Positions 16,609 to 21,343 of a stretch of DNA of 64,000 nt are shown piece by piece (positions within the stretch are counted from its first letter, which is position 1; every line of letters begins with the position of its first letter). The position numbers and the translations under genes were made by a program. The notes below the pieces were generated by a model that worked only from the letters and a program-made list of their open reading frames with translations, did not search any database and was not told the origin of the DNA. The DNA is from Nanobdellota archaeon (GTDB taxonomy: Archaea > Nanobdellota > Nanobdellia > Pacearchaeales > GW2011-AR1), in NCBI GenBank assembly GCA_038044205.1, contig JBBTAN010000017.1, positions 104,452 through 168,451 on the forward strand, read 5' to 3'.

Positions 16609-16651
16609 TGCCCGGAAGACATAGCCCATGTTATTTTATTATATTATGTAA
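16609..16651 (+). promoter_or_regulatory. TGCCCGGA-class promoter (copy n)
   Basis: octamer 16609-16616, TTTATT ending +24, GTAAGCC hairpin from +31. Confidence 0.6.
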
Positions 16652-16687: not shown

Positions 16688-16939
16688 ATGGCAAAGTTGA
16701 TGACGGAAAAGGAAGCCCAGTCTCATGGATTGAGGATCGTTCGTCTTGTGGGCGACAAGCCCTATGCGGGACGCAATCGGACCAAGATAGGTCCGATTGC
16801 CGAGAAGGCCGTGTCGAATCCGAAAGCCCGTATCGAATCAGAGATTCTCGCGGCCTTGCGCGAAGTCTCGGAAGGTTCGGAAGGCGGAAGAGCGGCCCGC
16901 GCGCTTCGCATAACCGAAAGGACGCTCAAGATCAGCTAA
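16688..16939 (+). CDS. small HTH DNA-binding protein (GC-rich cassette)
   Basis: C-terminal AARALRITERTLK resembles Fis/excisionase-type HTH. Confidence 0.5.
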   Translation: MAKLMTEKEAQSHGLRIVRLVGDKPYAGRNRTKIGPIAEKAVSNPKARIESEILAALREVSEGSEGGRAARALRITERTLKIS

Positions 16940-16942
16940 ACA

Positions 16943-16990
16943 AAAGAAATAAATACATGAATTAAGTTTCATGTATTTATTTCTTTTTAT
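16943..16990 (+). terminator. rho-independent terminator
   Basis: 19-bp stem AAAGAAATAAATACATGAA/TTCATGTATTTATTTCTTT plus T-run. Confidence 0.7.
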
Positions 16991-17003
16991 TATTTTTTAT
17001 TGA

Positions 17004-17011
17004 TGCCCGGA
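17004..17011 (+). promoter_or_regulatory. orphan TGCCCGGA box (copy o) lacking the TATT/G downstream elements
   Basis: octamer present; followed by G/C-tract hairpins, no gene. Confidence 0.3.
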
Positions 17012-17117
17012 GATAATATAAAAACAGCCCAAAAACCCACCCCCCACCCCCGTAGTGGGGGCATAAAAAAAATCAAATATCATTTTTTACCCTTTAGGGG
17101 ACCCCCCTTTCTCTTAT

Positions 17118-17162
17118 GGGGGTGTGTTTTAGGAAATGGTATTTTCTCGATATAAGGGATTC
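17118..17162 (+). repeat. ~46-nt degenerate intergenic repeat R1
   Basis: GGGGGTGTGTTTTAGGAAATGGTATTTT..ATATAAGGGATTC. Confidence 0.7.
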
Positions 17163-17263
17163 TATTCAATAAAAAATAAAAAAAATAAAAATAAATATAA
17201 GTATTATATAAGTATATACGGTATAAGGGGTTATATTTATTTTTATTATAATTTTATTTTAGA

Positions 17264-17308
17264 GGTGGTGGTTGTTTGAAAAGTGATTTTATGTAAGTAA
17301 GGGTTCCC
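17264..17308 (+). repeat. degenerate repeat R2
   Basis: GGTGGTGGTTGTTTGAAAAGTGATTTT..AAGTAAGGGTTCCC. Confidence 0.6.
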
Positions 17309-17357
17309 TGTTTGGGAAATAATATTTTATTTTATATTTTATAGGAGAATGGAAATA

Positions 17358-17405
17358 GGGGGTGGCCTGTTTTAAAAAGTGGAAAATATCAAGTTAAGGG
17401 ATTCC
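17358..17405 (+). repeat. degenerate repeat R3
   Basis: GGGGGTGGCCTGTTTTAAAAAGTGGAAAAT..AGTTAAGGGATTCC. Confidence 0.7.
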
Positions 17406-17459
17406 ATGCGGGATAATATATTATTTATTTTATTATATTTTTTGAGGATGATGAAAACA

Positions 17460-17505
17460 GGGTGGGGTATTTTAGAAAATGGAAAATATTTATATAAAGG
17501 ATTCC
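17460..17505 (+). repeat. degenerate repeat R4
   Basis: GGGTGGGGTATTTTAGAAAATGGAAAAT..TATAAAGGATTCC; GATCCGG palindrome 42 nt downstream. Confidence 0.7.
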
Positions 17506-17635
17506 AGGGATTGGAGTTATATATTTTATTTATTATTAGAAGAGAAGATCCGGAGCCGGATCGGGAATCGACTATGGAAGAATGGGGGAAATTGGTGTCA
17601 ATAGTGATATAATTACGATAAAGGATAAATAAAAA

Positions 17636-17899
17636 ATGGAAATAAAATATAATGATTGGCTGGACACTATTGATGAAGAAGGAATATATATCATGGTGGA
17701 AGTGTTTGGTCCTTCCGGTAAGATTACGAGAGATAGTATTGATGGAGCTTTTATTCATTTAAATAAAGATCAGTTATGTTTATCGGCAATGGAAGCTATG
17801 CAAGACATTCCTTTGATGACATCGAAGTCTCCGTCTATTAAATTTGAGGATATGATGGTAACATGTGCAATTCAGCGAGCTTATCATGCTCGCTGTTGA
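17636..17899 (+). CDS. hypothetical protein
   Basis: 87 aa, SD AAAGGA. Confidence 0.5.
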   Translation: MEIKYNDWLDTIDEEGIYIMVEVFGPSGKITRDSIDGAFIHLNKDQLCLSAMEAMQDIPLMTSKSPSIKFEDMMVTCAIQRAYHARC

Positions 17900-18083
17900 G
17901 TTGATTCCTGAAATAAATGAGTTACTTAATTCTGGAGAAAATAGATTACAAGGGACTATTATTTTTGTTCCTAAAGGGAAAAGGATAAAAAATAGTATAA
18001 CTGAAAAAGAAATAGTAAGATGGATATATGGTCCAAAGGATTCAGTGTTTGAAGGTATATCTTTCATTCCATTAAAAAATTAA
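17865..18083 (+). CDS. hypothetical protein (overlaps previous ORF by 35 nt, no SD; possibly one frameshifted gene)
   Basis: 72-aa ORF in a different frame from 17636 ORF. Confidence 0.3.
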   Translation: MQFSELIMLAVELIPEINELLNSGENRLQGTIIFVPKGKRIKNSITEKEIVRWIYGPKDSVFEGISFIPLKN

Positions 18084-18205
18084 AATATATTATTTTTATA
18101 TTACATCAAGTGTATTTCATGCTTTAGATGAAAAGGAAGTCACCTGGATGATTTTTGTTGGTTTACGGGCAAATGGATAGGGTATTATGGGAGGAAGAAA
18201 TAGAT

Positions 18206-18251
18206 GGGGGTGGTATTTTGAAAATGGATTTTTATCAATTAAAGGATTCCC
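18206..18251 (+). repeat. degenerate repeat R5
   Basis: GGGGGTGGTATTTTGAAAATGGATTTTT..ATTAAAGGATTCCC; GATCCGA 36 nt downstream; 88 nt before ATG 18339. Confidence 0.7.
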
Positions 18252-18338
18252 GGTTAGAAAAATAAAAAAATAAATATATTTAAATTGATCCGATGAGTAA
18301 GGGAATAATTTTTATTTAATAAATAAAGGAGAATGTAA

Positions 18339-19070
18339 ATGATTAAAAAATTAAATAAGAAACAGGAAATTTTGCTTTTAAAATATAGGGAGAAATGGTT
18401 AAATATTTCTTTATCTACGGAACCTGCTGATCGTATTAGAGCAGAGAATGGAATTAAGGATGCTTATCGAGTTGTTGGTAAGAATATTCCAAAACGGATT
18501 GAATGGGTAGATTCTCCGAAGGCTATGGCTAAAATTGCCATAAAGGAAGGTAGGAATTTAGCATGTAAACCTTTAGTTGGATTAATTCGTGATACTGTAT
18601 TATATTCAATAATAAATCCTGCGAAAAAGTATATGTCTGATTCTATATTTGCTCATGTATGTGAGATATGGCCAAGTATTGGAGATTCTATATGGTATTA
18701 TATAATGGATTCGGTATGGAGCGATGTTCGTGTTTTTGTTTGTTTTGGACAATATGACCCTTATTGGTGGGCTTCTTATGAATACATGGGAGATGTTCTT
18801 GGTATGAAGAATGAGGTAATTCCGATGCGAGGAATGATGGAGATAGCTCAATCTGCAGGGTGGTGGATGCCATGTGAGGATGTATGTTTTATTTCTGAAC
18901 GTCCTTGTGAGTTACATTTAAATGAAAAAGGTCAACTTCATAGGGATAAAGGAATGGCTATTATATGGCCAGATGGTTGGGGAATACGTTGTATTAATGG
19001 AAAAGCAATATCGCGTGAGAAAGTAGGAAAATTTGGAAATGGTTATAATAAAGTGGCATTGGTAAAATAA
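18339..19070 (+). CDS. hypothetical protein (recalls the DUF6745-type family; unverified)
   Basis: 243 aa; N-terminal W..I.LSTEPADR..AE and C-terminal SERP..LH..G.LH.D.G.AI.WPDGW patterns. Confidence 0.55.
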   Translation: MIKKLNKKQEILLLKYREKWLNISLSTEPADRIRAENGIKDAYRVVGKNIPKRIEWVDSPKAMAKIAIKEGRNLACKPLVGLIRDTVLYSIINPAKKYMSDSIFAHVCEIWPSIGDSIWYYIMDSVWSDVRVFVCFGQYDPYWWASYEYMGDVLGMKNEVIPMRGMMEIAQSAGWWMPCEDVCFISERPCELHLNEKGQLHRDKGMAIIWPDGWGIRCINGKAISREKVGKFGNGYNKVALVK

Positions 19071-19225
19071 TATAAAAAATAAATATATTTTTATTTATAT
19101 TTTTATAAAGGAGAAAGTTGGTGGGTAAAAATAAAGTATGTAATACATCTATACCAGATGATATAGTTAAAGGGGATGAGGATAATCCTCATGCTATAAA
19201 TCATATAGTAAAAAGATAGGATGAA

Positions 19226-19936
19226 GTGTATAAGGGGAAATTATCAATAGAGCCTGGGTATATAAATATAAACATATATAAAAAGGATAATGATATATAT
19301 GAATATTTAATATCACAAGGATGTAAAGGGAAAGAAGAGATAAAAGATATTATGATATGTTGGATGCAGACGAAGAGGTATTTATATCAAGATGTAGTAT
19401 TTTTGAATAATAGTGGAAAGTCATATGGGGTAAAACTTTATGATAGCAACAAAGGTTTACAGAAGAACGAGAGATTATATGTAATAGATAAATATAAATC
19501 AAAGAGTTGTTTGAAGTTATTTTGTCAGAAGATGTATCCAGAAATATATGGAGGTGCAGTTTATTTAGATATAGAAGAAAAAGGGATAATAAATAGTTCA
19601 AATATATTAGATGGATTTGATATGATATTGTATGATACAGGGAGTCAGGATAATCATAAATTGATGTTGTATAGTTCATGTATTAGTGGATTACGGAAGA
19701 ATTATAATGGATTTACAGGGGAAAATGTACTAAAAGTAGTTTTTGAGAATAGTGAGCAAATAACAGAAGAGAAGTCTGGTGATTATGGAGATAGTGTAAA
19801 AAAGATGTTTGAAATTTGTAAGAGGAAGGGAATAAAATTAAATTTATATAATAGTTCAGGTGCGGTTACGGTAAAAGATATAAAAGAAGATAAGGATGGG
19901 AATAAAAATATTATTGTTGATAAAGTTGAGAAATAA
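19226..19936 (+). CDS. hypothetical protein; in frame with an SD-led 32-codon ORF (19121..19216) across a single TAG
   Basis: GTG start has poor SD; upstream GTG 19121 has AAAGGAGAAAG SD; TAG at 19217-19219 in frame. Confidence 0.5.
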   Translation: MYKGKLSIEPGYININIYKKDNDIYEYLISQGCKGKEEIKDIMICWMQTKRYLYQDVVFLNNSGKSYGVKLYDSNKGLQKNERLYVIDKYKSKSCLKLFCQKMYPEIYGGAVYLDIEEKGIINSSNILDGFDMILYDTGSQDNHKLMLYSSCISGLRKNYNGFTGENVLKVVFENSEQITEEKSGDYGDSVKKMFEICKRKGIKLNLYNSSGAVTVKDIKEDKDGNKNIIVDKVEK

Positions 19937-19951
19937 AAAAGGAGAATGAAA

Positions 19952-20365
19952 ATGAACATTGGATTGTGTATTGGATTTGATATATTTGTTGGTTATTCTG
20001 TAAAATATAATGATTTATTAAAGAAATATAAAGTTAGGACAAAGGATGATATTGTTATCAAGATAAATGGTGAGACCTTTGACGAAACTGAAGACGAAGA
20101 TTTTTTGGGTGAAGTAGCTGATATTGTTGGAGCTAGATCTTTTTATTTGAACTGGGTTAATAAACAAAGAGTTTATTTTGGACCGAAAGTAAAAGAAATT
20201 GGTAATGATACAGAATATGGGGGTATTTTTGTTGGTAATGATTTAGATTTTAATTCTGTATTGAGTAGTAAAGATGAAATAATTAAAATTGGTAAAGGTC
20301 TTAAGAAACTAAAAATTCCTTTTATTGGTCCAAGAATTTTTTTGGATTCATGGGACAGTAGATAA
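19952..20365 (+). CDS. hypothetical protein
   Basis: second in-frame ATG has correct SD spacing. Confidence 0.6.
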   Translation: MNIGLCIGFDIFVGYSVKYNDLLKKYKVRTKDDIVIKINGETFDETEDEDFLGEVADIVGARSFYLNWVNKQRVYFGPKVKEIGNDTEYGGIFVGNDLDFNSVLSSKDEIIKIGKGLKKLKIPFIGPRIFLDSWDSR

Positions 20366-20439
20366 AAAAAAATGTCAACGGTATATGGTATAATTTTCAT
20401 TGAATCTGTCCATTTGGCAGGTTCCAAAATAAATAAAAT

Positions 20440-20566
20440 AAATTATATTCCAATTGAATATAGTTTACAAAAAAGGATCAAATTAAATCCCATTTGGATG
20501 GTCCGAACAAGAATAAACCCAATTGGTTTATTACAAATAGGCAAATTATATTCCGATTGAATATAG
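20440..20566. repeat. two 24-nt direct repeats containing near-palindrome TATTCC(A/G)ATTGAATA
   Basis: 20440-20463 and 20543-20566, one mismatch. Confidence 0.75.
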
Positions 20567-20828
20567 CCGAAACAAAAAAACAATATAACAATTTGTAATT
20601 GTAAACAAAAATATAAACATAACAAAAAAACATAATTGTGAATAAATAGAAGTTAATAATTGGTGCCAGCTAATAGTTACAATATATTGGCCTCGGCTTA
20701 AACTCAATTATTTTTTATTTATTTTATTGGAAACATGGAAACAAAAAGAAATATTTTATTTATTATGAGGTTAGGCGTAAAAAATAAAAAAATAAATATA
20801 TTATATTATATTATATTGTTTTATATAT

Positions 20829-20871
20829 GGGGTATGTTTTAAAAACGGTATTTTTCGACATAAAGGATTCC
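20829..20871 (+). repeat. degenerate repeat R6
   Basis: GGGGTATGTTTTAAAAACGGTATTTTT..ACATAAAGGATTCC; GATCCGGA 35 nt downstream. Confidence 0.7.
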
Positions 20872-21007
20872 GTAAAATAAAAAAAATTATTTATTATTTA
20901 TTAAAGATCCGGAATCATCTAAAACGGGAAAGAAAAGATATTGTAGATTAGATTTTATACAGGATTTCGATTATAAACTATATAATATAAGTATATAATA
21001 TAAGTAT

Positions 21008-21343
21008 ATGAGTAAAGATATAAATAAATCGAGATTTTTTTATCTACATGAAGAATGTAATAAATATAAAATAATAGCTCTTGAGTTGTTGCATAAAGAA
21101 TATATAAATTATGTAAGTATTTGTGTTGAACAGATGTTATCTAATCGTGTATTGACTATGCCAAGAAAAGAGAAACAGACATTTTTTATACGTGCGGAGA
21201 AGTTGACTTCGCAAATAGAGAAGAATGCTAGACAACATGCTATAGAGATAGTTTCATCGTGGGCTAAATCTGTTTATGTAAGAAAACTAAAAAGATATAT
21301 AATGGATTTATATAAAAAATATATACCCTTTTCTTGGTATTAG
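21008..21343 (+). CDS. hypothetical protein, no SD (doubtful)
   Basis: 111-aa ORF preceded by ATATAAGTAT repeats rather than an SD. Confidence 0.3.
   Translation: MSKDINKSRFFYLHEECNKYKIIALELLHKEYINYVSICVEQMLSNRVLTMPRKEKQTFFIRAEKLTSQIEKNARQHAIEIVSSWAKSVYVRKLKRYIMDLYKKYIPFSWY

Follow-up and report, generated by a model that had tools for sequence, protein, structure and literature searches.

Six degenerate repeats of approximately 46 nucleotides (nt) on contig JBBTAN010000017.1 (C17), which appears to be part of a very large uncultivated groundwater phage, may represent a diverged, local offshoot of the phage's class-1 promoter cassettes, a reading to which we assign a probability of about 0.5; its source was perhaps a class-1/class-2 promoter pair. 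The repeats lie in a window of 64,000 nt (C17:104452–168451) taken from a 1.0-Mb bin with 124 contigs and approximately 30% G+C; coordinates below are those of the window unless C17 is named. Judged from its sequence, the family would be a new local variant of the phage's promoter cassettes that stands outside both classes, because neither the class-1 octamer nor the class-2 prefix is present. The signal is most likely ordinary in kind and new in sequence, and the element lineage-specific.

An earlier note on this DNA had described six plus-strand copies, four of them in tandem 94–146 nt apart. All six exist, with starts at 17118, 17264, 17358, 17460, 18206 and 20829, and their cores, designated A–F, were delimited within a block of 3.8 kb (Table 1); the start-to-start distances in the tandem array A–D are 146, 94 and 102 nt. 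The consensus proposed at that time was about right. Mean column identity across the six cores is approximately 60%, the copies are 60–79% alike, and the information is concentrated in three blocks, namely a G-box (GGGGGTGG or a variant of it), (R)AAAAYGG and TAARGGATTCC. In the best DNA alignments the cores differ by indels of 1–2 nt. A profile built from the six copies and run against the whole 1.0-Mb bin retrieved these six alone, with the next match at E = 1.3. Leave-one-out profiles recovered A, C, D, E and F with E values of 3e-6 to 8e-4. Copy B is degenerate and marginal when taken alone (E = 3.7); it is backed by the register of the array and by a 73-nt alignment of B with C (z = 8.3).

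The search for more copies by nhmmer over the bin and by leave-one-out profiles gave none beyond the six, and targeted scans of 1.3–2.6 kb, 16.95–17.12 kb, 19.06–19.23 kb and 20.37–20.83 kb gave none either. In the first of these intervals, where decayed copies had been suspected, the best nhmmer score was −0.3 bits. GGATTCC words elsewhere on the contig all fall within coding DNA. A candidate seventh unit at 17590–17630, which has ATGGGGG and ATAAAGGAT, was rejected as not significant (z ≤ 1.3). A Chi-like reading of the G-box was likewise discarded, as GGGGGTGG is too rare with 4 occurrences in 249 kb, all of them at this locus. Nothing striking was seen with respect to avoidance of methylation sites (GATC, GANTC).

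Pairwise similarity between the copies is not confined to the core. Copies C and D align over 97 nt (17343–17439 versus 17445–17534, z = 14), A and E over 78 nt, and A and F over 62 nt, and the alignment of C with E takes in 20 nt of an upstream purine-rich box. Because these alignments reach well past the 46-nt core, the tandem part is a tandem duplication of a unit of approximately 100 nt that comprises the purine box, the core and an AT-rich spacer. The copies form two subfamilies, C+D+E and A+F; both members of the latter are followed by a ATATAAGTAT string. These strings, which the earlier note had placed at 17195 and 20972, are real; the second spans 20972–21009.

The likeness to class 1 carries the proposed relationship. 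The phage sequence searched was the 249-kb C17, about half of the ~500-kb genome. Class 1 is defined as TGCCCGGA-N20-TATTAT-N7-purine and has 31 copies on C17, all on the plus strand and all with an exact octamer; mostly TATTAT is found at N20, followed by G approximately 7 nt further on. Class 2 reads CCAAYTGATCCGA-N19-TATTGTA and has about 12 copies on C17. When seven class-1 promoters and the six units were put into one unbiased MAFFT alignment, GGATTCC(NGG) was placed under the class-1 box GATGCCCGGA, at its G(A/T)TGCCC part, giving near-invariant G, T, C and C columns, and the TAT-rich hexamers of the units came to lie under the class-1 TATTAT. The spacing between box equivalent and hexamer is N21 in B, C and D, N20 in E and N19 in F, compared with N20 in class 1. 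A TATTAT-like hexamer at N19–21 is thus present in five of the six units, A being the exception, and the class-1 arrangement of a hexamer about 20 nt past the box with a purine start some 7 nt further on is found here as well. Unit E has GATTCCCGGT, which is identical to GATGCCCGGA at 8 of 10 positions, and in its alignment with the promoter at 17004 GATTCCCGG is matched to GATGCCCGG.

The −10 region was also evaluated with a position weight matrix (PWM) of the class-1 −10 and start. Applied at the class-1 offset ±3 nt, it placed B, C, D and F at the 99.7–99.97th percentile of an AT-rich null. When the locus was scanned with this matrix, the best matches lay in the spacers of the array (17326, 17427 and 17523). 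The exact 15-mer TTATTTTATTATATT of the C spacer recurs in the class-1 promoter at 16609, in its −10 region, and none of 100 shuffles reached the score. The units resemble class 1 in layout, strand, box position, N19–21 spacer, TATTAT-like hexamer and purine start. They differ from it in having GGATTCC plus variable bases instead of the octamer, in approximately 35 conserved upstream bases (G-box and AAAATGG), in the lack of a terminator hairpin before each unit, and in their occurrence as six local copies, four of them in tandem without intervening genes. Of the second promoter class suggested earlier, the promoter-like character is supported, with the 3′ block where class 1 has its TGCCCGGA box and the −10-like hexamer at class-1 distance; a genome-wide class it is not, with six copies within 3.8 kb of a 249-kb contig. 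What had been taken for a different module looks like a derivative of class 1 and not like an independent signal.

Copies D, E and F are each followed by GATCCG(G)A and then by a gene start, as had been described. The GATCCG(G)A sequences at 17547, 18287 and 20906 lie 31–41 nt past the end of TTCC and begin 10, 6 and 5 nt, respectively, past the hexamer, and the genes start 88–134 nt past the repeat. On the plus strand of C17, GATCCGR has 14 matches, 11 being class-2 promoters; given this rarity and the three fixed-distance cases at three repeats, the association is not attributed to chance. The class-2 prefix CCAAYT is not found before GATCCGA, its place being taken by AGAGAA in D, by AAATT in E (a partial match) and by TTAAA in F. 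A class-2-like hexamer occurs at N19 in E (TATTTAA) and D (TATGGAA); F has TATTGTA at N26, which by its length would not be a working class-2 spacing. The order of a variant class-1 unit followed by a GATCCGR box mirrors the class-1 to class-2 pairs at C17 50432/50491 and 83071/83126. On C17 such tandem pairs are frequent, 55–59 nt apart and in either order, a further example being 69214/69271. GATCCG(G)A is better read as a transcript start or as the remnant of a class-2 box than as one half of a new bipartite element.

From this arrangement we infer that the units act as promoters. In the proposed mechanism, the 3′ block TAAAGGATTCC(NGG) would stand in place of the class-1 GATGCCCGGA and would be followed 19–21 nt after the box equivalent by a TATTAT-like −10. 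Transcription would start 5–10 nt past this −10, which in units D, E and F means at GATCCG(G)A or immediately 5′ of it, and the approximately 35 additional conserved bases (G-box GGGGGTGG and TTTTAGAAAATGG) would then be located at about −85 to −48. The strong terminator at 16942–16987 leaves the genes on its right in need of a new promoter; the four tandem units behind it would fire in series toward gene 17636, unit E would serve gene 18339 and unit F gene 21008. Units A–C may be extra or decaying tandem copies. Because the box departs from the invariant octamer and some 35 nt upstream of it are conserved, the units are probably read by a factor that is different from, or additional to, that of class 1. 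With a factor of their own, the three transcription units would be open to separate regulation.

Several observations weigh against a promoter cassette derived from class 1. The units fail the class-1 octamer test, as all six box equivalents deviate from the invariant TGCCCGGA; after TTCC they also differ from each other (CCTGT, ATGC, AGGG, CGGT, GTAA), whereas the 31 class-1 copies show no variation in the octamer, and the class-1 reader probably would not bind such variant boxes. No reader or binding factor for the units was identified, and no sigma-70 region 2 or region 4 domains were found on C17. TATTAT-like words are common in AT-rich spacers, the class-1 −10 PWM gives low scores for units A and E, and the agreement among B, C and D is not independent, as these copies are tandem duplicates. 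There are canonical boxes near the genes, TGATATAAT for 17636 and the TATAAT boxes abutting the ATG of 21008; with these −10 boxes of the genes' own, the repeats may not be needed as promoters. The element was found in none of the related phages searched (GenBank phages, IMG/VR and JGI metagenomes): BLAST against GenBank phages gave no match, the IMG/VR pattern scan gave 6 chance matches, none of them with a G-box, and the JGI metagenome scan gave 4 matches that were judged to be chance. Finally, the 5 sequencing runs that hold the locus are all DNA, and 4 of them come from one study.

The alternative that survives best, although we consider it unlikely, is that the repeats are dead relics. 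Recombination among the repeated promoter cassettes would have duplicated one of them and deleted gene bodies, leaving gene-less skeletons to decay neutrally. Each skeleton would consist of the translation-start region of the lost gene, with the G-box as Shine-Dalgarno (SD) sequence and AAAATGG as start, joined to the next promoter box, and genes 17636 and 21008 would be driven by the adjacent canonical −10 boxes. An ATG or GTG does lie 10–13 nt past the SD-like G-box in five of the six copies, AGGAAATGG in copy A is identical to the start region of gene 16688, and the canonical −10 elements are nearer to the genes than the repeats are. The homology past the core in C–D, A–E and B–C (97, 78 and 73 nt), the badly eroded state of copies A and B, with A devoid of a −10, the loss of the invariant class-1 CGGA from the box equivalents, and a single nucleotide polymorphism (SNP) within copy B in another sample point in the same direction. 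The conservation is blocky, however: four to six copies retain the G-box, AAAATGG and TAARGGATTCC, against variation in the flanks and in the 6–7 nt that separate the blocks, and at a genomic GC content of 30% the G/C positions are conserved to the same degree as the A/T positions. Furthermore, E and F, which lie at separate genes, keep the −10 distance though their spacers cannot be aligned with those of C and D.

Somewhat less probable still is a reading in which the 46-nt element would be the site of a phage-encoded factor that retargets or blocks RNA polymerase at the three transcription units on the border of the early block. The repeats would then form a third minimal regulon beside the TGCCCGGA and GATCCGA classes, in which the G-box/AAAATGG part would serve as an operator or as an activator site upstream, and the tandem array of four as a cooperative switch. 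Sequence searches of the PDB with the 83-, 87- and 111-amino-acid (aa) neighbours as candidate binders gave no matches.

A binding array without a promoter role, in the form of iterons for replication origin or copy control, a partition site, or repressor operators for the three downstream genes, appears improbable. Iterons (lambda ori, P1 incC/incA, P4 ori/crr) and the 43-bp sopC repeats of F are near-identical and lie beside rep or par genes. Like them, the units are direct repeats in a single orientation, clustered and dispersed (four in tandem, two scattered over 3.8 kb) in very AT-rich DNA; their three conserved blocks are approximately 17–20 nt apart, and inverted G-boxes mark the edge of the array. 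In contrast to near-identical iterons of 17–22 bp, the units measure 46 nt, are only 60–79% alike and are promoter-like; there is no rep, par or integrase gene nearby, and the GC skew remains positive around position 17 kb without a turn. A binding array also leaves the similarity to class-1 promoters unexplained. Membership in an iteron set or replication origin was rejected in view of the 60% identity over 46 nt, the lack of a rep-like gene nearby and the absence of a skew turn. Also rejected was a CRISPR array or solitary CRISPR repeat units, since the repeats are degenerate, the 48–100-nt spacers are mutually homologous and no matching repeat exists elsewhere in the bin.

That the repeats encode tiny proteins (xGWGxLENGxxxKGF or, in another frame, MENIxIKDS) or small RNAs is very improbable and largely refuted: the GWG frame is open in four of the six copies and a 68-aa open reading frame (ORF) across copy D (17406–17612) was accepted by a gene caller on one public contig, but the copies are offset from each other by indels whose lengths do not divide by three, the frame is not preserved in the best DNA alignment, only two of the six copies offer a start codon for the GWG frame, no related peptides occur elsewhere in the bin, the codon-usage log-odds of the ORFs in the gap (−0.16 to 0.12, including the 68-aa ORF) compare with 0.34–0.59 for the neighbours, and on the RNA side RNAalifold predicted 0 pairs, the fold of the 629-nt gap had z = −1.39 versus shuffles and Rfam gave sub-threshold matches only. 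The gap reported to be ORF-free from the end of the TGCCCGGA class onward holds no ORF with a coding signal (16940–17635), the last TGCCCGGA being at 17004.

Table 1. Positions of the repeat copies and of accompanying sequence features in the window
Feature	Position	Strand	Remarks
Strong intrinsic terminator	16942..16987	+	20-bp stem and T run; ends the last TGCCCGGA-class gene (16688–16939)
Last TGCCCGGA box	17004..17011	+	AAAACC where TATTAT (N20) is expected; decapitated class-1 promoter
Two overlapping inverted G-boxes (GGGGGTGG)	17036..17061	-	Left edge of the array, inside a terminator-like hairpin
Copy A	17118..17163	+	GGGGGTG...GGAAATGG...TAAGGGATTCT; closest to F; box equivalent TTCTATTC at 17160
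ATATAAGTAT(T)ATATAAGTATAT string	17195..17217	+	After copy A; ATA where the string of gene 21008 has ATG
Copy B	17264..17308	+	GGTGGTGG...GGGTTCCC; box TTCCCTGT at 17304, N21, TATATT at 17333–17338
Copy C	17358..17405	+	Box TTCCATGC at 17402, N21, TATTAT at 17431–17436
Copy D	17460..17505	+	Box TTCCAGGG at 17502, N21, TATTAT at 17531–17536
GATCCGGAGCCGGATC palindrome, 16 nt	17547..17562	+	Predicted 5′ end of the D transcript
Extended −10 TGATATAAT	17605..17613	+	Perfect match; 23 nt ahead of ATG 17636
Copy E	18206..18250	+	Box TTCCCGGT at 18247, N20, TATATT at 18275–18280
Exact 23-mer AAAAATAAAAAAATAAATATATT	18258..18280	+	Downstream of copy E
GATCCGA, preceded by AAATT	18287..18293	+	Predicted E start; TATTTAA at N19, 21 nt before ATG 18339
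Copy F	20829..20871	+	Box TTCCGTAA at 20868, N19, TATTTA at 20895–20900
GATCCGGA	20906..20913	+	Predicted start of the F promoter; TATTGTA at N26
Two ATAATATAAGTAT units, each with TATAAT	20975..21007	+	Abut ATG 21008

Three of the four intergenic regions in the 17–21 kb block hold a copy. The genes downstream of D, E and F are 17636 (87 aa), 18339 (243 aa, DUF6745) and 21008 (111 aa); no gene follows directly after A, B or C. No paralogy was found among the genes downstream of the repeats. Most of them are without a family match; the more distal gene 21426 matches radical SAM. The best homologues of the DUF6745 gene 18339 have 39–41% identity and come from unrelated contexts, among which is a type I-C CRISPR locus of a bacterium. 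Further to the right of gene 18339, at 19118–19936, an SD-led ORF of 32 codons is followed by one in-frame TAG and then by an ORF of 236 aa.

At the left border of the block, GATAATATAAAAACAGCCC comes after the last TGCCCGGA box (17004–17035), and no TGCCCGGA is found downstream of 17004 on the contig. The class-1 promoter at 17004 looks severed by whatever introduced the block at 17.0–21.0 kb. The adjoining C-rich tract (17036–17061) gives, on the minus strand, the hairpin CCCCCACTACGGGGG with a T run; there are no minus-strand genes within 5 kb to its right. With regard to cassette context, one strong terminator stands ahead of the whole array, and a hairpin-forming start is found in D only. 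Copy A lacks a −10-like hexamer at the distance seen in class 1 and has probably decayed. Copy B contains a weak hairpin, TTCCC/GGGAA, at 17304–17318. The start predicted for copy D (~17544) would lie directly 5′ of the palindrome, which could form a hairpin at the 5′ end of the transcript. By its sequence, the extended −10 TGATATAAT ahead of gene 17636 would be an alternative canonical promoter for that gene.

The 23-mer downstream of copy E, AAAAATAAAAAAATAAATATATT, recurs only upstream of copy F (20780–20802), with looser versions at 17185 and 19073. Gene 21008 is without a Shine-Dalgarno sequence, and the two ATAATATAAGTAT units before it may be the promoter of a leaderless mRNA. Copy F is preceded by a gene-free gap of 640 nt, the first 460 nt of which (20366–20830) have an extended −10, TGGTATAAT, at 20386. 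This part contains a tandem duplication, with CCATTTGG at 20410 and 20490 and AAATTATATTCC(A/G)ATTGAATATAG at 20440 and 20543; the latter sequence holds the near-palindrome ATATTC-N5-GAATAT and the class-2 promoter prefix CCAATTGA. The duplication may be a small RNA gene or a pair of operators.

The assignment of the window to a phage is in line with its gene content, the genes of C17 being phage-like or orphan, and public data include a contig of 499,814 bp that encodes the same proteins. The bin looks chimeric and appears to combine a small-genome bacterium with the 249-kb phage contig. Among the bin contigs, TGCCCGGA boxes in promoter context are found on C17 alone; within the bin, the class-1 promoters, the class-2 promoters and the 46-nt repeats are all confined to this contig. 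None of the relatives of the bin (0.5–0.9-Mb genomes) has this region, and a scan of 40 relatives of the host-like bin for the element gave AT-rich noise only. The class-1 promoter pattern itself yielded single chance matches only in IMG/VR. Across the four runs of one study, the sequence of the locus is unchanged except for the SNP in copy B and a TATAT length variant at 20796; the fifth run, from another study, holds 5% of the sampled words. The SNP (T17305G, inside copy B) is seen on one contig in ENA, and the length variant is an additional TATAT, in one run, in the (TATAT)n tract directly upstream of copy F. In another part of the window, approximately 1.6 kb at 1000–2640 are G/T-rich and without convincing genes, and the sign change of the GC skew, negative in the first kb and then positive, falls exactly there; this interval may mark the point from which transcription or replication diverges.

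The closest concept among known systems is that of the promoter-early stem-loop (PeSL) cassettes of T4-type phages, which are repeated promoter–terminator units before ORFans in variable regions, where they recombine and shuffle genes (PMC2839356, PMC4122927). In PeSLs a sigma-70 consensus promoter is joined to an effective terminator, a genome contains about 50 of them, and their stem-loops often carry poly-G/poly-C tracts (PMC2839356, PMC4122927). Both PeSLs and the repeats described here are short repeated cassettes ahead of small genes without assigned function, in a variable region prone to duplication and deletion; in their position upstream of ORFans in such a region the repeats agree with PeSLs, and poly-G/poly-C tracts occur here at the left edge of the array. 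Unlike PeSLs, the units combine a −10-like element with a non-canonical −35, show terminator-like hairpins only in B (17304–17318) and weakly in C, and have six members. Promoter and terminator activity have been demonstrated for PeSLs; for the repeats, promoter activity is predicted.

Two further phage systems offer partial parallels. The early promoters A1, A2 and A3 of T7 are canonical host sigma-70 promoters of proven activity and are not repeats of each other. They provide the closest functional picture, with promoters approximately 100–130 nt apart, in the same direction, in front of one transcription unit and at the start of a gene block; the difference lies in their canonical, non-repeat sequences and proven activity. 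In T4 middle promoters, a case of sigma appropriation, a MotA box is combined with a sigma-70 −10. The units resemble them in that a phage-specific upstream box replaces the −35 ahead of an ordinary −10. They are unlike them in that neither a MotA/AsiA-like gene nor a sigma gene was found on C17, the boxes are unrelated and the conserved region is much longer here.

Huge uncultivated phages are known almost only by sequence. The phage described here seems to rely on two or more promoter types of its own, and the repeats would illustrate how a cassette duplicates locally, loses its invariant box and gains a conserved upstream part, which is a plausible route for the origin of a new regulatory class. 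If the units are active, they would mark the transcription units 17636, 18339 and 21008, at the end of the early block, as being under separate control, and the 46-bp element would be a defined bait with which to find the protein responsible. Dead units would instead document a turnover of cassettes like that in T4-type phages.

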